Below are positions 54 to 8,918 of a stretch of 64,000 nucleotides of DNA, in pieces. Positions within the stretch are counted from its first letter, which is position 1. Each line of letters opens with the position of its first letter. The position numbers were made by a program, and so were the translations under genes. The DNA comes from Escherichia phage HK6. The DNA lies in the sequence record PP724615.1. One strand, written 5' to 3'. The notes beneath the pieces were generated by a model that was given only the letters and a program-made list of their open reading frames with translations, did no database searches and had not been told where the DNA came from.

Positions 54-1928
54 ATGAATCGCAATGAAGAACTAAAGTATAAAGAAATGCAGGCGTTAAT
101 TAGAAACTGCAAAGAGATTATCGAAGGGTCAGCAGATGAAGAGCTGCTGTTTAATAATGCTAATAAACCCTCAGAACGTTTCCCTACACAAAGGGATATG
201 CTTGCAGGTGAGTTGAGTAAGTATCTGATTCTAGAAGAAATGCCAATTCAGATTCGAAATGCTCATATGATTGGGGATATTCATTTCCATGATGCTGATT
301 ATGCTGCATTAGGCATGACTAATTGTTGTCTGGTAGCTCTGGAAGATATGTTAAAGAATGGTATGAAGGTTGGTAATGCTGAAATTAGCACTCCAAACTC
401 TATTACCACTGCGGCGGCTATTACTGCTCAAATTATCACTCAGGTTAGCTCCCATCAGTATGGTGGTACTTCTGTAGATCGCCTTGATGAAGTATTAGCC
501 CCTTATGTTCGTAAATCCTATGACAAAAATCATGCGTTTGCAAAACGTTGGACTAAGGATGAAGCCAAAGCATCCGTAATGGCTACGGAGATGACTGAAA
601 AAGAAGTCTATGACGCTTGTCAGGGTTTAGAATATGAAATCAATACCATGTTCAACTCTAATGGTCAGAGTCCATTTATTACCTTTGGTTTTGGTCTAGG
701 AACTTCTTGGGAAGCACGTCTAGTACAGAAAGCAATACTGAAAGTACGCATGGATGGTTTAGGTATCAATAAACGTACAGCTATCTTCCCAAAACTGGTA
801 TTTGTACTTCGTGATGGTGTTAACATGAAACCAGGAGATGTTAATTATGACATCAAGAAGTTAGCTATGAAATGTACTGCTGAACGTATGTATCCAGATT
901 ATATCAGCTATGACAAGGTTGTAGAAGTTACTGGAGACTACAAAGTTTCTATGGGCTGCCGTTCATTCCTAGCTGCTACAGAAGATGGTGAAACTGCCGG
1001 TCGTAATAACTTAGGTGTTGTTTCTGTAAACTTGCCTAGAATTGCTATCGAAGCTGAAGGAAATATTGACCTATTCTTTGATTTGCTTGAGCTACGTGTG
1101 GATACAGCGTTAAAAGCATTGGAGTGGAGAGTTGATCGCTTAAAATACATTCAAGCTAAAGCTGCACCTATCCTCTATATGTCCGGAGCCTTTGGGTTAC
1201 GCTTGGGGCCTGATGAGTATGTGTTCGATCATTTCTATAACCGTGCTTCTGTATCTCTAGGGTATATTGGTTGCCATGAAATGCTACAGTTCATGTTTGG
1301 CAAAGATGTAGACACAATGTCCGAGACCTGCATCAAGTTTGTTCAGCGTGTATTGCAGTACATGCGGGATAGAGTCGATCAGAAGAAGGAAGAGACTAAG
1401 TTAGGTTATAGCTTGTATGCTACACCGTCAGAGTCCCTATGCGATAGGTTTTGCCGTTTAGATCGTGAATATTTCCCAGAGCATGAAGATATTCTGTCTA
1501 AAGGATACTACACTAACTCGCACCACCTTGATGTAGAACGTAAAGTTGCTCCCAATGTGAAATTTGATTATGAATCTAACTTTACTCCTATTGCTTCTGG
1601 TGGGTGCATTTCCTATGTAGAACTACCAGATATGAAACGATTCCCAGATGCACTGGAATGGGTTATTAATTATGCTGCTAGTAAAGTTCATTACTTCGGT
1701 ATTAATACTCCAGTGGATTCTTGTGGTAAATGTGGATTCTTAGGTGAAACAGTAGCATCCGAAGATGGGTTTAAGTGCCCTATCTGTGGTAATCATGACC
1801 CCGAAACTCTTGAAGTAACTCGTCGAGTTTGTGGGTATCTTGGAAATCCAGGTGCTCGTCCATTTAACCCCGGCAAACAGCACGAGGTAATGGGCAGAGT
1901 GAAGCATCAAGATATTCGAGCTAAGTAA
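54..1928 (+). CDS. nrdD: anaerobic ribonucleoside-triphosphate reductase (class III RNR), 624 aa
   Basis: ATG at 54 preceded by AGGAG; C-terminal glycyl-radical motif RVCGYLG and Zn-ribbon cysteines CGKCGF...CPICG typical of NrdD. Confidence 0.85.
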   Translation: MNRNEELKYKEMQALIRNCKEIIEGSADEELLFNNANKPSERFPTQRDMLAGELSKYLILEEMPIQIRNAHMIGDIHFHDADYAALGMTNCCLVALEDMLKNGMKVGNAEISTPNSITTAAAITAQIITQVSSHQYGGTSVDRLDEVLAPYVRKSYDKNHAFAKRWTKDEAKASVMATEMTEKEVYDACQGLEYEINTMFNSNGQSPFITFGFGLGTSWEARLVQKAILKVRMDGLGINKRTAIFPKLVFVLRDGVNMKPGDVNYDIKKLAMKCTAERMYPDYISYDKVVEVTGDYKVSMGCRSFLAATEDGETAGRNNLGVVSVNLPRIAIEAEGNIDLFFDLLELRVDTALKALEWRVDRLKYIQAKAAPILYMSGAFGLRLGPDEYVFDHFYNRASVSLGYIGCHEMLQFMFGKDVDTMSETCIKFVQRVLQYMRDRVDQKKEETKLGYSLYATPSESLCDRFCRLDREYFPEHEDILSKGYYTNSHHLDVERKVAPNVKFDYESNFTPIASGGCISYVELPDMKRFPDALEWVINYAASKVHYFGINTPVDSCGKCGFLGETVASEDGFKCPICGNHDPETLEVTRRVCGYLGNPGARPFNPGKQHEVMGRVKHQDIRAK

Positions 1929-1970
1929 GCTAATCAGCCGGGTTGCTAGTCGACCTGGCTTTTATTTTAT

Positions 1971-1999
1971 TTGCTTTCATCCAAAAATTTATATATAAT
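1971..1999 (+). promoter_or_regulatory. sigma70-type early promoter (TTGCTT-17-TATAAT) with downstream ATAAATTTGAGAGGAG element
   Basis: -35 TTGCTT 1971-1976, 17-nt spacer, -10 TATAAT 1994-1999, 28 nt upstream of ATG 2028; same architecture recurs at 8927, 11169, 21209 and 53777. Confidence 0.6.
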
Positions 2000-2027
2000 A
2001 GATTTATAAATTTGAGAGGAGAAAGAT

Positions 2028-2408
2028 ATGGAATTAAAGCCCTATATAGTTGAATCTACATGTGGTAGTTTCCATCTGGGTGTGGATGATATTGCTGAGG
2101 CTGTCTTTGCTGCTACAGGTGATTACTCGCATATAGAGGGTGTTGCATACCCTACCATTATTGGCGATTGGGTGGAAACAAATCTAGATGTATCGCCTTA
2201 TAACCCATATTGCTTGTTTGATGAAGACAGAGATGAAGTAAAATGTAATCTTGAATTTGTGTATAATAGAGTGTTAAAAGTATACCAACGTAGCCCCAAT
2301 GGGTACGAAGATATTACTTGGAGTATTAAACAGTATCTTAAAGATATATACTCTAGTTTTTCTGACGAAGACCTAGAAATAGTTGCAGTGGAGTTTAATA
2401 ATGACTAA
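2028..2408 (+). CDS. hypothetical acidic protein, 126 aa
   Basis: ORF with GAGAGGAG RBS 8 nt upstream, directly downstream of a strong promoter; D/E-rich; no recognisable motif. Confidence 0.6.
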   Translation: MELKPYIVESTCGSFHLGVDDIAEAVFAATGDYSHIEGVAYPTIIGDWVETNLDVSPYNPYCLFDEDRDEVKCNLEFVYNRVLKVYQRSPNGYEDITWSIKQYLKDIYSSFSDEDLEIVAVEFNND

Positions 2409-2607
2409 GAATGTGAAACACCTTAAATATCGCTTAATTTACAACGGACGTATGGAAACAGAAGATCTGGCCCAGTTAGCTATTAATTCTAAGGAGGTTA
2501 CAGTGCGTGCGCTGGCAATTGAAAAGTTGCGTGCCTCTTATGAAAATCGTGTTATGGAATTAGAGGAGAAACTTTATGGCATTCTCGAAGCCGATGCTAC
2601 CAGATAA
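2401..2607 (+). CDS. hypothetical protein, ~68 aa
   Basis: ATG at 2401 overlaps the stop of the upstream gene (TAATGA) with GGAG 8 nt upstream; the track ORF starts 18 nt earlier at 2383. Confidence 0.45.
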   Translation: MTKNVKHLKYRLIYNGRMETEDLAQLAINSKEVTVRALAIEKLRASYENRVMELEEKLYGILEADATR

Positions 2608-2797
2608 GGGTTTAAACGCCGCTTTGGAAAACGCATTAATGCAGCACTGGGAAACTGGCTATAAGGATGGTGTTGAATCCTGCGCTACTATGCTAGAAGT
2701 TATTGCTAATACCTTAATGGAGAAAGGCAATAAAGAATTAGCTGAGCTATTAGATAGTATTGGGCAAAACTTCAGAGAACAGGTGAAAAATGCGTAG
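2576..2797 (+). CDS. hypothetical protein, 73 aa
   Basis: ORF with GAGGAG RBS; overlapping start and stop with neighbours suggests translational coupling. Confidence 0.5.
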   Translation: MAFSKPMLPDKGLNAALENALMQHWETGYKDGVESCATMLEVIANTLMEKGNKELAELLDSIGQNFREQVKNA

Positions 2798-3626
2798 ATT
2801 AATTATTATTAGTGGTGCAGGTTTGAGTGTTGAAAGTGGTGTACGAGCTTTTCGTACTAATACTGCTAGCGGTAAAGCATTGTGGGATGATTATGATCTA
2901 GAAGAAGTATGTAATATTCATGCCTTTCGTGGTAATTTTTATCATAAAACCCATATGTTTTACAACAAGCGTCGTGAAGAGCTAAAAACTGTTGAACCCA
3001 ATCTTGCGCATTTGCGTATTGGTGAATGGTATAAACAATATCCAGGTCAAGTAGTAAACTTGACTACCAACGTTGATGACCTTATTGAGCGTGCTGGCGT
3101 TTCACATAGTGACATTCTGCACATTCACGGATATTTAAAAGAGGTTGTTGTAGCTGATAGCTACAATAGTAGCAATAAACGGATTATTGATGTAGGATAC
3201 AGTTCTATCGATCCGGATGATTATAAATGGGTTAAACCTAATGTAATCTTCTTTGGAGAGCATGCTCCAGCATATGCAGAAATGTACAATGTTTTTGATG
3301 GTATTACCAGTCAAGATATGATTGTTGTGGTTGGTTGTTCTAACCAAGTAATTAACTTCTACTGGGAATTATTTCCTGTTCTTAATTTGACTGCTGCGAA
3401 ACTTATGGTTGTTAACTACCATGATAGTGCCCTCGCAGCGGAACCGGGCTATCAAGGTATGACTCGTAGTGAGATGTACCAGCTGGAGGAACGCGGTATC
3501 CCTTACTGGAGTAAAGGTGCGGTAGATGCTTTCAGTGACCCTGATTTTATTGCTCGTGTAGAAGCTCATTTAGAGGGTAGACCTTATGTGTTGAGAAGCA
3601 AGGGAAACAGATATGTCCATAGTTAA
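2790..3626 (+). CDS. Sir2-like (sirtuin-family) NAD-binding protein, 278 aa
   Basis: N-terminal GAGLSVESGVRAFR matches the sirtuin signature GAGxSxxSGIPxFR; downstream HIHGYL (catalytic His) and PNVIFFGEHAP motifs; no CxxC Zn-binding pairs. Confidence 0.6.
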   Translation: MRRLIIISGAGLSVESGVRAFRTNTASGKALWDDYDLEEVCNIHAFRGNFYHKTHMFYNKRREELKTVEPNLAHLRIGEWYKQYPGQVVNLTTNVDDLIERAGVSHSDILHIHGYLKEVVVADSYNSSNKRIIDVGYSSIDPDDYKWVKPNVIFFGEHAPAYAEMYNVFDGITSQDMIVVVGCSNQVINFYWELFPVLNLTAAKLMVVNYHDSALAAEPGYQGMTRSEMYQLEERGIPYWSKGAVDAFSDPDFIARVEAHLEGRPYVLRSKGNRYVHS

Positions 3627-3795
3627 ATCTGTATATACACATCCCGATGACATATTTGTATGGGCAGATGGTAGTTGGTGCTATCGATGTGAGTTATGGG
3701 AAATGGACTATAAATCCGATGACTATGGCGTCATATATGTTGATACGGTTGAGTATGATACGTTCTTAGAAAGGAACAAAAATGGAAATAAGTAA
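3613..3795 (+). CDS. hypothetical protein, 60 aa
   Basis: ORF overlapping neighbours in an operon-like arrangement; Trp/Tyr/Asp-rich; no motif. Confidence 0.4.
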   Translation: MSIVKSVYTHPDDIFVWADGSWCYRCELWEMDYKSDDYGVIYVDTVEYDTFLERNKNGNK

Positions 3796-4288
3796 TACTC
3801 CAATTATTTTTCTAGATATTGATGGGGTGCTCAATTCGAGCATCTCCCACCATCATGCACCTGATAATGAAAAGATTTTCTTTGGAAGTGACTGGGTTTT
3901 CAAACCGCTTCTCAAGGCTTTTCAGGATTTTATTCGTCCTTCTCCGATAATGATTGTTGGAGTATCCTCATGGTTCTCTGTCAGGAATGAGATGGAAAAC
4001 GTTCAGATTATGACCGGATTAGGTCTTATCGATCGTTTTCTTGGTACAACGGATTTTACTGGGGGTGGATTATCTAGGGGTAATTCTGTTCTTCGCTTCG
4101 TTGAAAAGCATAAGCTCAAACATTGGTGTGTGCTTGATGATGCTGGTGCTATGATGTATCAGTATCCAACGGTTATAGTCAACGGTAGGACTGGGATAAA
4201 TCTTCAAGATTTAAAAGCTGTTAGCTATATGCTAGAATTTAGCCCAGATCTTGAAATGTGTAAATCCTTACAACAATTTAAGGTGTAA
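3782..4288 (+). CDS. HAD-superfamily phosphatase-like protein, 168 aa
   Basis: Motif I IIFLDIDGVLNS (hhhDxDGxL) at the N-terminus and motif IV CVLDDAG; RBS AAAGGAA. Confidence 0.55.
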   Translation: MEISNTPIIFLDIDGVLNSSISHHHAPDNEKIFFGSDWVFKPLLKAFQDFIRPSPIMIVGVSSWFSVRNEMENVQIMTGLGLIDRFLGTTDFTGGGLSRGNSVLRFVEKHKLKHWCVLDDAGAMMYQYPTVIVNGRTGINLQDLKAVSYMLEFSPDLEMCKSLQQFKV

Positions 4289-4290
4289 AT

Positions 4291-4719
4291 ATGTTCAATA
4301 ATGTATTCTCTAAAGAAGCTAACCCAATTTTGGTTAACTTTTGGCGTACTCTCCCAGCTAGCCTGTATAATGAGGCTATTAACTCCTTGAAAATATGGTG
4401 TGAGAATAATGAAATCTCCTTTGCTTTTAAAGATGATATTGATGAGGCCCCCTGTATTGGTTTAATTGTTCAGGTAGAGGAGGGTCTTGAGGAGATTGTC
4501 GGCTGGAAAGAGTTAGATGAAATAGGCTTAGTTTTTGCGTTAAACTATAAGCTGTTTATGCCTGCTAAGCATCGCCTCGTTGTTAACTATAAAACTAGTG
4601 AATCTCCTGGTTTTCAAGTTAATGAACGTTACGGTTGGTCTTACTTACCGGAAGAAGTAAATGATGGTATCCAAAAACTTCGCCGTTTTGGTTATCAAAT
4701 TCCGGGTTTAACTGCTTAA
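4291..4719 (+). CDS. hypothetical protein, paralog A of a tandem pair, 142 aa
   Basis: AAGGTG RBS; shares PCIG...GW.ELD/S..GL..ALN and R.G...PGL segments with the next ORF. Confidence 0.6.
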   Translation: MFNNVFSKEANPILVNFWRTLPASLYNEAINSLKIWCENNEISFAFKDDIDEAPCIGLIVQVEEGLEEIVGWKELDEIGLVFALNYKLFMPAKHRLVVNYKTSESPGFQVNERYGWSYLPEEVNDGIQKLRRFGYQIPGLTA

Positions 4720-4728
4720 GGAGGAAGA

Positions 4729-5121
4729 ATGGAACAAGTATATTGGCGTCAGATTGACCCTAGTTTGGTGAAGCGTGCGGAAAAGCTGCTACAACGTTGG
4801 TTAGGGGTAAGGCAAGCCTCCTTCACTTTTCCGGAGCAGCAAACGGATGATCCCTGCATTGGCGTTTTCCTGTCTGGATATGCCGGGGAATGGGAGATGG
4901 ACTGGAATGAATTGTCAGCTATGGGTTTAATTGTTGCCCTAAACTTCTCTATATTCCATCCACGTGGTTTGGCCATATGTCGCGTGCCTGATGACGGTTG
5001 TTCGCCCCATCTTTTACAGGTGGAAAATGATATTTGGGAGTACACTCCAGATATTCTCGCAGAAGCTAAAGAACAATTAAATCGTGTTGGGATTTATGTT
5101 CCGGGATTAAATGATGAATAA
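4729..5121 (+). CDS. hypothetical protein, paralog B of a tandem pair, 130 aa
   Basis: AGGAGG RBS; sequence similarity to ORF 4291-4719 (DDPCIGVFL, MGLIVALN, GIYVPGLND). Confidence 0.6.
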   Translation: MEQVYWRQIDPSLVKRAEKLLQRWLGVRQASFTFPEQQTDDPCIGVFLSGYAGEWEMDWNELSAMGLIVALNFSIFHPRGLAICRVPDDGCSPHLLQVENDIWEYTPDILAEAKEQLNRVGIYVPGLNDE

Positions 5122-5308
5122 GGAATTTTGGAAAATAAAAGGGAAGATTTCTAAGTGGAATACTACAGGGAAAATTAGTAAGTCTCTAGAGATAGAGATA
5201 GCTAGAATGTTTACTGATCCTAATTTTGATATAGAAAAACTAAGCAAAGTAGATGCTAAAAAAGTAGATAAGTATATAGAAGAGATTAGAAGTATTTTAA
5301 GTGTCTAA
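5111..5308 (+). CDS. hypothetical Lys-rich protein, 65 aa
   Basis: ORF overlapping the upstream stop; followed by an intrinsic terminator. Confidence 0.45.
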   Translation: MMNKEFWKIKGKISKWNTTGKISKSLEIEIARMFTDPNFDIEKLSKVDAKKVDKYIEEIRSILSV

Positions 5309-5315
5309 TCCACGT

Positions 5316-5342
5316 AACCGAGTCATTTTGGCTCGGTTTTAT
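5316..5342 (+). terminator. rho-independent terminator
   Basis: Hairpin CCGAGTCATTTTGGCTCGG followed by TTTT. Confidence 0.55.
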
Positions 5343-5384
5343 CCGTACTCAAGACCAATGATAGCACCATCCGGAAAATTTTAC

Positions 5385-5413
5385 TTGCAGGATGCCCAAA
5401 ATCTTGATATAAT
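5385..5413 (+). promoter_or_regulatory. sigma70-type promoter (TTGCAG-17-TATAAT)
   Basis: -35 TTGCAG 5385-5390, -10 TATAAT 5408-5413, followed by ATTTATATTGAATTGAGAGA resembling the downstream element of the other early promoters. Confidence 0.45.
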
Positions 5414-5911
5414 ATTTATATTGAATTGAGAGACATTAGTAAAAATTGATTTTGCTAATTTTTCTTGTTTACAATCCGCGATACGGAACAGTTAGGCTGC
5501 CCCATTAAGGGTTGTTTTAACTGTTACGTGTTAGTTTTTAAACAAATAGTTAATAGAATACTTAGCGATCTACATCCCGTAGGAACCCTGGTAAGGCCTC
5601 GAAGCAACCTAGTGTGAGGTGGTTGTGAAGTGAGACGGGAAGAGTGAAAAACTCTGAGAAGTGATGACGTAAGGTATACTGCATCTAGTATGAGCTAGTA
5701 CATGAAGCATTAGGTGAGCAAATCTGGCTTAGCGGCCATCCTCAAGGATTTGTGCGGTATAGTGAAGCGGCAGTGTAGCGTGAAAGGGGAAGTTGCCACC
5801 CCCCTTCAGTATTTGCGATTAATTGTTGAGAAATTGACAGTAACAGTTGTTCTATTCTTTCTGAATAGTCCTAAAGAAAACTTATTTCATTTCCAACACA
5901 GGAGTATTGTT

Positions 5912-8701
5912 GTGTTCTCAATCCTACAAGGTCATGCAGGATTTCATCGCGACTTAGCCACAGGCATTTGGCGAGAAGTTAAAGCAGAAGACTATCTTTT
6001 TGCTAAAAGATTTTCCTCAAAGCATCCTGAAGGTAAACCAGCTTCAATGCCCTTCAAGTTTGATGTAATTGATGAAGTTGATCCTCAAACCCTAGTAGAA
6101 ATGCTCCCTCTTATGAGACGTTTAACGTCTGACCCTCATATCGTTGCGGTACGAGGTCGATGTCTTGCACCCAAAAATAACGTGCGGCGTAAGAAGGGCA
6201 ACTTTAATGTATCTAACCCAAGTCATATAATTGCATTGGACGTGGATGGTATTGTAGATACAGGTGGTTGTAACAAGTTTGATCTTGTTGGCATGGCTCG
6301 ACATATTATTAGGATGTTAAATAGTATTAGTGAGGATATGTTTCCTCTTGATGCAGGGTTTATTGCTCATGCATCGTCTTCGGCTGGGCTAAAACCAGGT
6401 ATCCGAATGCACTTAATACTAGAATCTAATGTTAAAGTAACTCAGGGTCAAATCAAATTCTTATTTACATCTATCAACGAAAGTAGTAGACAAAAGTATG
6501 GCTTTGATATTGCCGACTTAGCTTATTACTCTTCCGTACAGCTCCATTATTTTGCAGATCCGTTATTTACCGATGGTATAGTAGATCCGTTTAAAGCGGA
6601 GGGTGCCTCACGTCTGGTATTTGTTAAGGGTTCTAAAGTAAATTTACCTAATAATCTGGTTGACTATGAAACAACTAGAGGTGAGTTTAAAGAGGAGTTC
6701 TACTCTTTACTCGACCAAATTAAGGGTAAAAAAGCTGCCTCTGATAAAGTAGAGGAAACTATCAGCGAACTAGAAGAAGCTGAGGATGGAGTGTACCTAC
6801 GTATTATACCTAAACTCTATCATAGAGCTTTGGAGGATGGTGTTGATTTTGCATGGCTAGAAAAAGAAATCCGTCCAGCCTTATCAGAATATATTGCAAC
6901 TAAAGATAATAGTCGCAATATTCAAGATTACTTTAATAACGGTCGTAAGCAGGCTCTAAAAGCATTTGTTAATAATTCTAAACGTGATATACCTGATGTT
7001 TTAAAAGGTATTCCACTTAAAAAGCTAGAAACTAACTCTCTAGAAACTGATAACTTCTTGAAATTAAATACTGTACCACCAGAAGGTTATATGACTTTTG
7101 TAAAAGCAAGTCTAGGTACAGGTAAAACTACGGCGGTTGTGCGTTGGTTAGATTCAGGAGTTATTAAAGGTAATTTCTTAGCAATTACCAATACTCGAGC
7201 ACTGGTATCTTCAAATGCTAAGAAATTTAGTGCAGGACAATATGATAAGTCTGTAGATATGCTTAATTTTAAGCGTGGCGCTATTGACCGTATGTCCACA
7301 ACTATACATTCTTTGCATAAGTTCAAGAGTTTTATTGGTCAAATTGATGCAATCTTTATCGATGAATGTGATGCTGTAATGAATGACCTATTATTCGCCC
7401 CGGTTGTTAAACAACGTCGTGAATGTATTCAGGTTCTTCGGGATATTCTTGCAACTGCAAAAATCATTATATTATCTGATGGGGATATTAGTGCAGAAAC
7501 AATTGAAGCATACGGTTCTTTGATTGAGTTTGATAAACCAGTAGCATTTTATAATCATCACCGTAAGATGCTGTCAAAAGCTCATGCTTATGAGTTCCCT
7601 GACGAATCCAGTATTTGGGTTGCACTTCAGACTTCTCTAGAGATGGGTGAGAAATCTATCCTAGTATCTGACTGTGGTCCAGATGAACTGAATGAGAAGG
7701 GCATGGCGTTGCGTCGTAATACGGGTGCGTTAGTTAAGGAAATCCACTCAAACTCTACGTCTGATGTAGATATTCGACGTATTCTGGATTACACAACTAA
7801 TGAGTTAATTGACCAACAAATTGATTGCTTATTATGTAGCCCATCCGTAACGAGCGGTGTTGACTTTAACTATTTTGATAACGTATTCGTTATTACTAGG
7901 ACCAGTAACCAAGCGCCAAACATGCGTTTTCAAGCAATCAGGCGCGACCGTGGCGCTCAGAACATTTATTATTTTATTGATAAATCTACGAGTGGATTCT
8001 CCGCAGGTTCTGAGCAATATAACATTGACGAGGGTTGGCTGGAGTTAGCACAGCAATTATACGCACGTCGCAGAGAGCTGGAATCTAGGAACTATACTAG
8101 TACTTTACGTTACTATTTGCTTGATCAGGGTGCAACTATTGATATTTTCAGTGAAAGCTGGGGAACTATCGAAGGTGCGGGGAAAGAATATACAGAAGAG
8201 CGAATCAAAGCCATTTTGTATTCAACCCCTGATTATTGTGCTCCACGCCATGCAGATGCGTATGAAGCTAAACTACTTCTTGTACGCTATTATCATCTTG
8301 AGTCTATTAAAGATGTAACAGTTGAGCATGTTGAACAATATATCAAGGATAAACCGAATGATCGAGCTGCATTCTTCCATAAGATGCACGAGATGTTCTG
8401 GGAAGATATTAAGAAGTGTTCAAATGTCACTATCAAACCATTCATAGAAGCTCTGAAAGGTAAGAAGAAAGATTTCTTCCTTAAAACAGGTCAGAGTGCT
8501 AACCCAAAATATGCAAGAATGTATCTTGGTATGATGGGTATTGGTAAGGATATGAACACGGAGAATATTGTAGACTGGTACAGAACCTATTGTAAAATCG
8601 AGTGTATGCCAATCCCATATAAGTTTATGACTGATGAGGAGAAACATATGCATGATGAAGCAATGGCAGAGCTAGGTGCTAGAAATGACAGTGAAGAATA
8701 A
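5912..8701 (+). CDS. replication-associated P-loop helicase (replication-origin-binding-protein-like), ~930 aa
   Basis: Walker A ASLGTGKTTAV, Walker B IFIDECDAV and later LLCSPSVTSGVDF; proposed start is GTG 5912 with AGGAG 7 nt upstream; the track start at 5714 is an in-frame GTG without RBS, and ATG 6047 is an alternative. Confidence 0.6.
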   Translation: MFSILQGHAGFHRDLATGIWREVKAEDYLFAKRFSSKHPEGKPASMPFKFDVIDEVDPQTLVEMLPLMRRLTSDPHIVAVRGRCLAPKNNVRRKKGNFNVSNPSHIIALDVDGIVDTGGCNKFDLVGMARHIIRMLNSISEDMFPLDAGFIAHASSSAGLKPGIRMHLILESNVKVTQGQIKFLFTSINESSRQKYGFDIADLAYYSSVQLHYFADPLFTDGIVDPFKAEGASRLVFVKGSKVNLPNNLVDYETTRGEFKEEFYSLLDQIKGKKAASDKVEETISELEEAEDGVYLRIIPKLYHRALEDGVDFAWLEKEIRPALSEYIATKDNSRNIQDYFNNGRKQALKAFVNNSKRDIPDVLKGIPLKKLETNSLETDNFLKLNTVPPEGYMTFVKASLGTGKTTAVVRWLDSGVIKGNFLAITNTRALVSSNAKKFSAGQYDKSVDMLNFKRGAIDRMSTTIHSLHKFKSFIGQIDAIFIDECDAVMNDLLFAPVVKQRRECIQVLRDILATAKIIILSDGDISAETIEAYGSLIEFDKPVAFYNHHRKMLSKAHAYEFPDESSIWVALQTSLEMGEKSILVSDCGPDELNEKGMALRRNTGALVKEIHSNSTSDVDIRRILDYTTNELIDQQIDCLLCSPSVTSGVDFNYFDNVFVITRTSNQAPNMRFQAIRRDRGAQNIYYFIDKSTSGFSAGSEQYNIDEGWLELAQQLYARRRELESRNYTSTLRYYLLDQGATIDIFSESWGTIEGAGKEYTEERIKAILYSTPDYCAPRHADAYEAKLLLVRYYHLESIKDVTVEHVEQYIKDKPNDRAAFFHKMHEMFWEDIKKCSNVTIKPFIEALKGKKKDFFLKTGQSANPKYARMYLGMMGIGKDMNTENIVDWYRTYCKIECMPIPYKFMTDEEKHMHDEAMAELGARNDSEE

Positions 8702-8918
8702 AAAATGGGAAACAAGGAAGTTCCCAGTAAAAGAACGTAAAGTTCCTGTTTACGACACTTCGGAAAAGCTATGTAGGGTAGTACCGCATAGATTAGCTGG
8801 CATCCCTAACATATCCGAGTGGTTACTTAAACAACGGAAAACAAACGTGTCTCTTCGTATCGGCTTTGAGTTAGATAAAGTCTACGCTGAACTTGCTTCT
8901 TTGCTCAAGGAATCGTAA
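8676..8918 (+). CDS. hypothetical protein, 80 aa
   Basis: ORF overlapping the 3' end of the helicase gene; start uncertain. Confidence 0.35.
   Translation: MLEMTVKNKKWETRKFPVKERKVPVYDTSEKLCRVVPHRLAGIPNISEWLLKQRKTNVSLRIGFELDKVYAELASLLKES

Follow-up and report, generated by a model that had tools for sequence, protein, structure and literature searches.

A zinc-less class III-type sirtuin and its HAD_SAK_2 neighbour in T5-like phages: a possible NAD+-dependent phosphate-removal module

Introduction

Why does a T5-like phage carry, almost side by side, a sirtuin without a zinc site and a small predicted phosphatase, and what could the two products do together? The question is raised by a stretch of 64,000 nt from Escherichia phage HK6 (referred to here as the window), which belongs to a T5-like phage and in which ORFs 2790-3626 (Sir2) and 3782-4288 (HAD) are orthologues of T5.102 and T5.105, respectively.

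Parts of this locus have been described before. The Sir2 gene was already annotated with the T5 genome, and phage sirtuins lacking the zinc site were noted by Skliros (2016). Iyer, Burroughs, Anantharaman and Aravind (2022; Viruses 14:1977; PMC9503650) reported a neighbourhood of a sirtuin and a 'Swiss-army-knife' HAD in the T5-like phage SP15, predicted KptA/Tpt1-like RNA repair for the phage sirtuin clade, and published both the KptA analogy and the three types of neighbourhood that are considered below; no Macro-domain partner was found for the clade in that study either. The Sir2-HAD pair is hence not new, and its published RNA-repair function is a prediction; no experimental work on T5.102, T5.105 or another protein of the sirtuin clade turned up in literature searches. 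The clade is present in about 1,000 sequenced phage genomes, T5 included. The present analysis adds to Iyer et al. (2022) the reversed-order loci, the co-deletion in phage DT57C, the conservation of the class III YxxR motif, the link of the HAD to NARP1-like operons, and the mosaicism of Sir2 alleles.

Gene Layout of the Locus

The Sir2 ORF (2790-3626, + strand; 278 aa, ATG) and the HAD ORF (3782-4288, + strand; 168 aa, ATG) exist as the initial annotation had them, and all the motifs quoted there were located. The two were also called adjacent, which is true of their membership in one gene string and not in the strict sense: a 60-aa T5.104-like ORF (3613-3795, + strand; phrog_5116, E 6e-30) overlaps Sir2 at its stop and HAD at its start and separates the two genes, which are thus near-adjacent members of a single, tightly packed + strand string. 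The spacer comprises 0, 1 or 2 small ORFs in other T5-like phages; T5 itself has two, and the 60-aa ORF is missing from four loci (L007, L009, L013 and L015), where HAD lies directly 3′ of Sir2.

Upstream, three small overlapping ORFs on the + strand (2028-2408, 2383-2607 and 2576-2797) lead into Sir2, and a terminator-like hairpin (1936-1960, + strand) is located 3′ of nrdD, which places the start region of the transcription unit at 1936-2797. The T5 record has an annotated terminator and promoter at the place equivalent to this hairpin, and another terminator after T5.107. The hairpin was the sole usable signal from a promoter and terminator scan of 1800-5800, in which 13 sigma-70 promoters were found versus 11.8 expected from shuffling, a number not above chance. 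The wider surroundings are made up of nucleotide-metabolism and replication genes, with nrdD upstream and a replication origin-binding helicase downstream of Sir2, and no tRNA genes were found within the 64-kb window.

Immediately downstream of HAD, a tandem pair of DUF7415 paralogues corresponds to T5.106 (4291-4719) and T5.107 (4729-5121), both on the + strand (Pfam DUF7415, E 1.6e-34 and 7.3e-32 for the pair). Such tandem genes follow Sir2/HAD in 31 Demerecviridae-type loci, three of which lack HAD, and the SP15 protein is 92% identical to the DUF7415 of the HK6 window; the type 3 neighbourhood of Iyer et al. (2022), from Escherichia phage SP15, shows no substantive difference from the HK6 pair. 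The DUF7415 genes have been kept in phage DT57C despite the deletion of Sir2 and HAD, and in Aeromonas phage Aeh1 a DUF7415 gene is found after rnlA. It is uncertain whether the DUF7415 pair belongs functionally to the Sir2-HAD module. A search for DUF7415 relatives returned close T5-like copies only, with no informative fusions, and the label 'exonuclease (ACLAME 70)' borne by some relatives is unsupported.

A Class III-Type Sirtuin without Its Zinc Module

ORF 2790-3626 matches Pfam SIR2 (PF02146; E 9e-25) over profile positions 1-178 of 180, which was the only match in a Pfam scan at E<=0.1. The sirtuin signature GAGLSVESGVRAFR, an NAD loop of the GAGxSxxSG(I/V)xxFR type, occupies residues 9-22, HIHGYL residues 111-116 (with the catalytic His113 at window 3126-3128), and FFGE residues 154-157, while Tyr58-x-x-Arg61 lies at window 2961-2972. 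The key residues are G9-A10-G11, S16-G17, F21-R22, Y58/R61, N94/D96, H113, F154-F155-G156-E157, G182/S184 and N209. Column conservation was computed for two sets, one of 121 phage homologues and one of 65 homologues; G9, A10, G11, S13, S16, G17, F21, R22, Y58, R61, N94, D96, H113, G114, F154, F155, E157 and N209 are invariant in the 121. The initial annotation of a sirtuin-fold NAD+ enzyme is borne out in that the nicotinamide/NAD pocket and the catalytic His are intact, and the structure prediction that had been proposed for both proteins yields a sirtuin fold for this one (AF2 model, pLDDT 89.8), with CobB, Sir2Af1 and SIRT5 as top Foldseek matches (E 7e-18; TM 0.83-0.86 on target).

In an alignment with CobB (1S5P; E 1.8e-17), N94, D96 and H113-G114 coincide with catalytic residues, and Y58/R61 with CobB Y92/R95. 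The phage protein shares with the class III sirtuins CobB (E. coli), SIRT5 (human) and Sir2Af1 (Archaeoglobus) the fold, the motifs GAGxSxESGxxxFR, FYNxRR (which contains Tyr-x-x-Arg), PNxAH and TxNVDxLxERAG, the catalytic HG, and the loop [RK]P[HN]V[VI][WF]FGE. It differs from them in lacking zinc cysteines and the second knuckle, in the replacement of the Gln of TQN[IV]D by Thr (Thr93), and in a cofactor loop that is four residues longer. Unlike CobB, it belongs to a phage-only family set among genes for RNA-end and NAD metabolism, and not in a setting of acetyl-CoA synthetase-type regulation. Judging from motifs and alignments, ORF 2790-3626 codes for a stand-alone class III-type (CobB/SIRT5-like) sirtuin in which the NAD+ pocket and catalytic His are retained.

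The zinc module is absent, as had been noted from the letters. The protein has only two Cys (C41 and C183) and none in the small-domain stretch 117-150; the CxxC...CxxC pattern occurs in 0/121 homologues, and the only recurrent Cys in this region is at position 148 (51/121). C..C...CPxC survives in jumbo-phage relatives at a greater distance (L062 and L063), relative to which the T5/rV5-type clade carries a deletion of about 8 residues that has removed the second knuckle. Loss of the module is real and common to the T5/rV5-type clade; its three-stranded sheet persists in the AF2 prediction. Replacement of the metal site by the invariant C41, H74 or H55 was considered and rejected: there is a single conserved Cys, and H74 is part of the general PNxAH motif.

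These features bear on two readings. In class III sirtuins, the Tyr-x-x-Arg residues bind succinyl or malonyl groups, and the phage protein could be an ordinary protein lysine deacylase, i.e., an NAD+-dependent desuccinylase/deacetylase akin to CobB, through which acyl marks on proteins of the host or the phage are reset in the course of infection. Metabolic enzymes might be among its targets, as might ligases at their catalytic lysines, and the HAD would have a separate job. In sequence and fold it is nearest to CobB, Sir2Af1 and SIRT5, all bona fide deacylases; Tyr58/Arg61 match the succinyl/malonyl-binding pair of CobB, and the FGE loop, His113 and nicotinamide pocket are all invariant. On the other side, the zinc module, which supports the peptide-binding cleft in cellular sirtuins, is gone, and scores against the NCBIfam CobB equivalog models are all far under their cut-offs (best 101 vs 243 bits). 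The same conclusion of deacylase function was reached for Vibrio phage homologues by Skliros (2016). Taken with the genomic evidence below, this reading seems possible without being probable, and it is the main rival to the phosphate-removal model.

The other reading is that of the initial annotation, in which a minimal Sir2 domain like those of defence systems has NADase or protein ADP-ribosyltransferase activity and modifies host targets or sabotages NAD+-dependent immunity. The sirtuin fold can support both NAD+ hydrolysis and ADP-ribosyl transfer, and the NAD+ pocket is intact. In addition, Sir2 alleles differ by about 50% between phage backbones that are otherwise 89-97% identical, a divergence that could reflect an arms race. 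The defence SIR2 NADases (ThsA, DSR1/2, SIR2-HerA and SPARSA) share with the phage protein the Rossmann-type NAD+-binding fold of the sirtuin superfamily and, like it, have no canonical zinc ribbon; the phage protein differs from them in being phage-encoded, in having no sensor or partner domain, and in the absence of any HMM or top-fold match to them. It falls in the classical SIR2 family with no match to SIR2_2 (Pfam); a PADLOC scan of Sir2, the 60-aa ORF and HAD at E<=0.01 gave no match, and no defence SIR2 protein is among the best 50 fold matches. A Macro-domain partner of SirTM type was sought among the scanned neighbours (the small ORFs, HAD and DUF7415) and not found, and an unregulated NADase would presumably harm a phage that itself depends on NAD+, being said to use a LigA-type ligase. 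The sequence, fold and context results contain no pointer to host-target modification or to interference with NAD-depleting immunity, and the resemblance to defence NADases does not hold against the closest relatives and the invariant Tyr58-x-x-Arg61. The NADase or ADP-ribosyltransferase reading is accordingly regarded as very unlikely.

The HAD_SAK_2 Phosphatase

With regard to the second gene, ORF 3782-4288 matches HAD_SAK_2 (PF18143; E 7.4e-20), with FLDIDGVL, from which a HAD phosphatase had been proposed, at residues 10-17. Like the SIR2 match of the first ORF, this one lies well outside chance expectation. Motif I is D12-x-D14 (window 3815-3823), motif II is S62/S63, and motif IV is D119-D120 (window 4136-4141); for motif III, the sequence alignment offers a single candidate, namely R99 within GGGxxRG, which is invariant. 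The motifs are invariant across homologues, the modelled structure confirms the Rossmannoid HAD fold, and the product is best described as a predicted cap-less HAD_SAK_2 phosphatase whose DxD...S...DD active site is intact, with every catalytic aspartate present.

The family name implies action on RNA terminal phosphates, and a 2016 RNA-repair paper by Burroughs and Aravind reportedly defines the SAK HAD. The HAD profile had nothing significant among PDB chain sequences (best E 0.53), and a Foldseek search of BFVD with the HAD model gave uncharacterised phage HADs only. The best 150 HAD_SAK_2 relatives are mostly stand-alone proteins, and a Pfam scan of the ten longest relatives showed tandemly repeated HAD domains and a single Metallophos fusion only.

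Linkage of the Two Genes across Phages

A functional link between the two genes, as had been supposed, is upheld by their distribution. HAD lies directly 3′ of Sir2 in 28/31 Demerecviridae-type IMG/VR loci, and the order is reversed, with HAD before Sir2 and the genes still adjoining, in three divergent T5-like lineages (L073, L080 and L081). In the viable phage DT57C, one deletion took out Sir2 and HAD together and left a Sir2′-′HAD chimera, which shows that the module is dispensable for laboratory growth. The partnership is not obligatory, because three Sugarlandvirus-type loci have Sir2 without HAD and Serratia phage ChuuTotoro has HAD with no Sir2 within the 32-kb stretch inspected. Sir2 and HAD have been inherited, rearranged and lost as a pair, and this genomic context supports real coupling. 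The pairing of Sir2 with a phosphatase in both gene orders is left unexplained by the deacylase reading; it would be easier to explain if the sirtuin handled or produced a phosphomonoester, since a protein deacylase yields none.

RNA-Repair and NAD+ Metabolism Neighbourhoods

In 13 Vequintavirinae-type (rV5-like) loci, Sir2 is associated with a cassette of calcineurin-like phosphoesterase, T4 Rnl1-type RNA ligase and P-loop kinase, after which it is placed in most of them. An ATP DNA ligase is downstream of Sir2 in 13/13 of these loci and MazG is present in 13/13, overlapping the Sir2 start in one; cREC was detected in nine and NADAR in six. This repeated embedding of Sir2 among RNA-ligase, kinase and phosphoesterase genes is also unaccounted for by a plain deacylase. 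No homologues of Rnl1, the kinase, cREC, Metallophos, MazG or NADAR were found among the ORFs of the 64-kb window, and the T5 annotation over positions 1-62 kb lists no RNA ligase, polynucleotide kinase or cREC; for 'heal and seal' repair, T5-like phages would therefore have to rely on host enzymes.

The HAD family has a neighbourhood of its own. Aeromonas phage Aeh1 has a HAD_SAK_2 gene two genes before rnlA, and in three phage lineages of about 150 kb a HAD_SAK_2 relative is directly upstream of a Prs-like and Nampt-like pair. The pair is probably NARP1 (Adps/Namat), to judge by domain composition and by how widely the Prs-like protein is spread among phages, and HAD relatives beside NARP1-like genes occur in Vequintavirinae. 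In NARP1-AP operons, a comparable position is held by Adpp, a Macro-domain ADPR-1″-phosphate phosphatase (Osterman et al., 2026, preprint). The putative phosphatase HAD_SAK_2 resembles Adpp in its place directly upstream of the Prs-like/Nampt-like pair, and differs in having a HAD instead of a Macro fold and in a T5-like partner that is Sir2 and not NARP1. This placement suggests ADPR-1″-P dephosphorylation and lends contextual support to the initial proposal that the HAD handles an ADP-ribose-derived product. The context evidence for action on RNA terminal phosphates is mixed, HAD being near rnlA in Aeh1, beside Sir2 in T5-likes and beside NARP1-like genes in Vequintavirinae.

It may also be asked whether the pair serves soluble NAD+/ADP-ribose metabolism with no RNA involved, the HAD being a non-homologous Adpp analogue and the sirtuin making or consuming a soluble ADP-ribose derivative. 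Such a pair could counter defences that turn NAD+ into unusual products (RES-type phosphorolysis) or ADPR-based signals. No NARP1 genes were found in the 64-kb window or the inspected T5 regions, so that the phage could not rebuild NAD+ from ADP-ribose, and the NARP1 label itself is drawn from domain composition only. To our knowledge, no class III sirtuin has a role in a pathway of this kind, and the explanation appears improbable.

A Tentative Mechanism

The reading preferred here, which is held tentatively and with somewhat less than even confidence, is that Sir2 and HAD form an NAD+-dependent module for phosphate removal and clean-up of ADP-ribose phosphate. The sirtuin would cleave nicotinamide off NAD+ and pass ADP-ribose to an anionic oxygen nucleophile gripped by Tyr58/Arg61, most probably a terminal or 2′-phosphate on tRNA or other RNA cut by host nucleases. 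His113 would then activate the ribose 2″-OH, and the phosphate would be expelled as ADP-ribose (cyclic) phosphate. HAD, in turn, may remove the remaining RNA-terminal phosphate or convert the by-product ADPR-1″-P into ADP-ribose.

The expulsion step follows the logic of KptA/Tpt1, as first proposed by Iyer et al. (2022). In the yeast tRNA splicing pathway of KptA/Tpt1, Cpd1 and Poa1p, ADP-ribose is passed from NAD+ to an RNA phosphate with loss of nicotinamide; the phosphate is then released in the form of ADP-ribose cyclic phosphate, which is opened and dephosphorylated to ADP-ribose. By analogy, the neighbouring cREC, 2H and HAD genes could fit the downstream steps. KptA/Tpt1 is not homologous to the phage protein, having an ART fold (H-H-h signature) as against a sirtuin fold, and the analogy comes from gene context only.

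Several points weigh against phosphate removal. We know of no sirtuin with activity on a phosphate acceptor, and all the sequence features, including the class III FGE loop and YxxR, are equally compatible with a CobB-like lysine deacylase. Sir2 and HAD are both acidic (pI 5.9 each), unlike typical RNA-binding enzymes. Moreover, the partnership is facultative, and no RNA-ligase fusions are seen among the top HAD_SAK_2 fusions.

Since a ligase is absent, the T5-type module may not be of the 'heal-and-seal' kind. A more specific version of the phosphate-removal model, which is a long shot, is a counter-defence 'de-blocking' pathway with new sirtuin chemistry and HAD_SAK_2 as an Adpp analogue. 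In this scheme, tRNA 3′ ends that carry a phosphate-type block, for instance a 2′/3′-phosphate resulting from host nuclease cleavage or a toxin-added (pyro)phosphate, would be freed of it by the zinc-less class III sirtuin at the expense of NAD+. HAD_SAK_2 would be a second, non-Macro ADPR-1″-phosphate phosphatase that detoxifies or recycles the by-product, and in rV5-like phages the same activity might feed NARP1.

Implications

The framing of the phage Sir2 as a 'defence-like NADase' should be dropped. If the sirtuin is a plain deacylase, the gene would be an ordinary auxiliary metabolic gene. If the HAD is an ADPR-phosphate phosphatase, the newly described NARP1-AP counter-defence would gain a second enzyme family. 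Should the RNA-phosphate model hold, the phage protein would be the first sirtuin to act on nucleic-acid phosphate, the KptA/Tpt1 reaction would have arisen a second time by convergence, and the protection of tRNA by these phages would be tied to the NAD+ arms race.

Genomic Organization of the Sirtuin Locus

The window belongs to a T5-like phage (Demerecviridae, Tequintavirus), and its segment 2000-5200 matches 444 records, with 95-97% nucleotide identity to fp01, NBSal005, and many others. Downstream of nrdD (54-1928) and a terminator-like hairpin located directly 3′ of it (1936-1960), the ORFs form a tightly packed plus-strand string with overlapping stops and starts. This string comprises three small ORFs (2028-2797), a 278-aa sirtuin (Sir2, 2790-3626), a 60-aa acidic protein (3613-3795; phrog_5116, pI 4.35), a 168-aa HAD-family phosphatase (HAD, 3782-4288), and two tandem DUF7415 paralogues (4291-4719 and 4729-5121), each with two DUF7415 repeats. 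The start of the 60-aa ORF overlaps the Sir2 stop and its stop overlaps the HAD start; thus, Sir2 and HAD, described as adjacent in the initial annotation, are near-neighbours in one string with a small ORF between them. In the T5 reference record, the equivalents are T5.100 to T5.107, located between an annotated promoter and terminator, and T5.102 is annotated as Sir2 with a note citing InterPro IPR003000. What lies between Sir2 and HAD differs among T5-like phages, from no small ORF at all to one or two: HAD directly follows Sir2 in four loci (L007, L009, L013, and L015), and T5 has two small ORFs in this space.

Further downstream, a gap of ~280 nt without a long ORF (5430-5713) precedes a 995-aa ORF with a GTG start (5714-8701), a homologue of the T5 replication origin-binding helicase (T5.108). 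Alignments with other T5-like loci cover only 93-95% of this ORF, so the true start may lie downstream of the called one.

A Zinc-less Class III-type Sirtuin

Both ORFs and all motifs quoted in the initial annotation are present, and Sir2 aligns along the entire length of the Pfam SIR2 profile (PF02146; E 9e-25). An alignment of 121 sequences was built from the window's protein and 120 collected homologues (49-96% identity), which came exclusively from phages or phage-like contigs. Invariant or nearly so are G9, A10, G11, S13, S16, G17, F21, R22, Y58, R61, N94, D96, H113, G114, F154, F155, E157, G182, S184, and N209, which include the NAD loop as well as H113, N94, and D96, the three that align with catalytic residues of CobB. 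The absence of a zinc module is confirmed and extends well beyond the window: the CxxC...CxxC signature occurs in 0 of the 121 sequences, and the sole frequent Cys of the corresponding stretch is at position 148 (51/121). The T5/rV5-type clade carries a ~8-residue deletion exactly at the expected site of the second zinc knuckle. Jumbo-phage relatives on two viral contigs of 279 kb (L062) and 608 kb (L063), with Sir2 at about 8001-8708 and 36-37% identity, still have their zinc cysteines (C..C...CPxC), and their TQN[CI]DD motif is of the canonical form. These sequences show that the zinc loss is real, old, and common to the whole clade, and that both this loss and the Gln-to-Thr change are derived in the T5/rV5-type clade.

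Among solved structures, the best sequence match is E. coli CobB (1S5P, E 1.8e-17), and Sir2Af1 and SIRT5 are also matched; NCBIfam CobB models score well below their cut-offs. AlphaFold2, run with 65 homologues, gives a confident sirtuin model (pLDDT 89.8, pTM 0.88) whose small domain keeps its three-stranded sheet without metal. Foldseek against PDB returns CobB first (E 7e-18, target-normalised TM 0.83-0.86), followed by Sir2Af1 and SIRT5. Class III sirtuins use a Tyr-x-x-Arg motif to hold succinyl- or malonyl-lysine by its carboxylate. The equivalents of CobB Y92/R95 are Tyr58/Arg61, both invariant across the phage clade, and the class III loop RPHVVWFGE reads KPNVIFFGE in the phage protein. 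Given this likeness to CobB and SIRT5, and the lack of any PADLOC or SIR2_2 match, Sir2 is classified as a diverged, zinc-less class III-type sirtuin that is predicted to retain everything needed to cleave off nicotinamide and transfer ADP-ribose.

The initial annotation's observation is therefore confirmed and its interpretation partly supported. Its framing of Sir2 as a defence-type NADase or ADP-ribosyltransferase is very improbable, since the protein lies outside the defence NADase families and no defence-type SIR2 appears among the top 50 PDB Foldseek matches. The main rival to the phosphate-removal reading discussed below is a CobB-like protein deacylase, for which homology is the sole argument; it leaves the gene context unexplained and is somewhat less likely. 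Skliros et al. 2016 (PMC5107563) used 1S5P as the template for models of the Sir2/CobB proteins of Vibrio phages and argued for protein deacetylation. They also pointed out that the zinc ligands are missing and named T5 as one of the carriers.

At this locus, Sir2 occurs as two deeply diverged alleles. The protein encoded in L048 (8001-8849, from another phage genome) shares only 51% identity with that of the window (2790-3626), whereas NrdD, HAD, and helicase are 97%, 89%, and 90% identical (Tequintavirus- versus Epseptimavirus-type backbones). Therefore, the Sir2 alleles have been swapped, as in mosaic replacement, or diverge much faster than their neighbours. In the divergent allele, ~18-20 residues are inserted into the helical small domain, and L048 has one CxxC there.

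The HAD Phosphatase and Its Linkage to Sir2

HAD matches HAD_SAK_2 (PF18143; E 7.4e-20), a family with 8,544 representatives at E<=1e-3. Most of these stand alone and are 150-190 aa long; longer members are few and consist of HAD repeats in tandem or, in one case, of a fusion to Metallophos. In public annotations of the RefSeq/PHROG style (RefSeq fp01, T5, and others), this gene is labelled 'Sir2 (NAD-dependent deacetylase)' (window 3782-4288; L001 4783-5289; L064 5089-5595). The label is an annotation artefact that stems from phrog_18062: this 92-aa family bears the name Sir2, yet it fits the C-terminal half of HAD (E 6e-58) and the real Sir2 only weakly (E 1.8e-5). In Escherichia phage DT57C, a deletion took most of both genes, leaving gp102 ('defective sir2', 90 aa; L068 3980-4252), in which Sir2 residues ~171-213 are fused in frame to HAD residues 128-168. 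A chimera of this type probably seeded phrog_18062 and would explain its origin. Since DT57C is viable, the module is dispensable in the laboratory.

Among 62 IMG/VR loci with a sirtuin relative, 31 were of Demerecviridae type, and in 28 of these HAD is immediately 3′ of Sir2. DUF7415 genes come next, as a pair in 27 loci and as a single detected copy in L032. The order is reversed, with HAD followed by 1-2 small ORFs and SIR2, in three divergent T5-like lineages (L073, L080, and L081), whose HAD shows only 38-42% identity. This adjacency, the reversed lineages, and the co-deletion in DT57C establish that the two genes are linked independently of their order. The partnership is not obligatory: HAD is lacking in Sugarlandvirus-type phages, which carry Sir2 with the DUF7415 pair. 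DUF7415 genes invariably come after Sir2/HAD in Demerecviridae, and the pair stays in place where HAD, or HAD and Sir2, are missing. The label 'exonuclease (ACLAME 70)' on some DUF7415 records has no visible support.

RNA-repair and NAD+ Neighbourhoods

In Vequintavirinae (Raoultella phage Ro1, Bas51 WalterGehring, and 13 IMG/VR loci), sirtuins of the same clade mostly follow genes for a calcineurin-like phosphoesterase, a T4 Rnl1-type RNA ligase, and a P-loop kinase, and a cREC cyclic-phosphate domain protein was detected in the cassettes of 9/13 loci. An ATP-dependent DNA ligase (13/13) and NADAR (6/13) are found 3′ of Sir2, and a MazG-like protein is present in all 13 loci, overlapping the Sir2 start in one. 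Aeromonas phage Aeh1 has a HAD_SAK_2 gene two positions 5′ of rnlA and a single-repeat DUF7415 gene immediately 3′ of rnlA. Directly 3′ of this HAD_SAK_2 gene is nrdA.1 (L065 5446-5730), a DUF4326 protein; DUF4326 was reportedly predicted by Aravind's group to bridge NAD+-ADPr systems with DNA/replication functions.

HAD_SAK_2 relatives are also located upstream of a Prs-like and Nampt-like pair in three ~150-kb, Vequintavirinae-like lineages (Serratia phage ChuuTotoro, L074, and L075), right next to it in ChuuTotoro and one small ORF away in the other two. Such arrangements, with HAD 37-43% identical, span L072 6001-9217, L074 6001-9569, L075 6001-9519, and L078 11889-15105. Judged by domain composition, the pairs are NARP1-like, the NARP1 pathway being one that uses Adps and Namat to make NAD+ again from ADP-ribose and nicotinamide. 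According to a 2026 preprint (Osterman et al.), some NARP1 operons (NARP1-AP) encode an extra Macro-domain phosphatase, Adpp, which overcomes RES-type phosphorolysis of NAD+ by converting ADPR-1′′-phosphate to ADP-ribose. The preprint does not mention HAD genes, and no earlier report of HAD_SAK_2 upstream of NARP1-like pairs was found in the literature. The HAD_SAK_2 relative holds a position comparable to that of Adpp and may be its non-homologous analogue. The sirtuin and HAD families thus recur alongside genes for RNA-end processing and for NAD+/ADP-ribose. That the module acts purely on small-molecule NAD/ADPR is unlikely.

Proposed Reaction

From the sequences, Sir2 is predicted to have a complete NAD+/nicotinamide pocket together with its catalytic His and an invariant, putatively anion-binding Tyr/Arg pair, and HAD an intact active site. 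We tentatively favour an NAD+-dependent phosphate-removal module following the Tpt1/KptA scheme, with a phosphomonoester acceptor. Some Tpt1 enzymes also remove terminal 2′/3′-phosphates in an NAD+-dependent manner. In yeast, Cpd1 opens the cyclic phosphate and Poa1p dephosphorylates ADPR-1′′-P, steps that map onto cREC/2H proteins and HAD. Briefly, nicotinamide would leave and a phosphate oxygen of the acceptor would attack C1′′; His113 would then activate the 2′′-OH, and the phosphate would depart as ADP-ribose 1′′,2′′-cyclic phosphate. A Cpd1-like ring opening by cREC/2H and a Poa1p-like dephosphorylation of ADPR-1′′-P by HAD would complete the process.

The phosphomonoester acceptor is favoured because the product of a deacylase, O-acyl-ADP-ribose, leaves the phosphatase without a task; the HAD link and the ligase/kinase/cREC cassettes are more simply explained by it, and the NARP1-linked HADs also fit a role in ADPR-phosphate clean-up. 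Against phosphate removal, we know of no sirtuin catalyzing such a reaction, no RNA ligase, kinase, or cREC was found in the window or the inspected annotated T5 regions, Sir2 and HAD are both acidic, and DT57C dispenses with the module.

Removal of RNA 2′-phosphates by the sirtuin in the manner of KptA was proposed by Iyer et al. 2022 (PMC9503650), who described the sirtuin together with a 'Swiss-army-knife' HAD in the T5-like phage SP15. The feature is therefore already known, as annotation and computational prediction, and the literature search yielded no experiments on members of the phage sirtuin clade. The biochemical question raised by Sir2 and HAD is directly testable.
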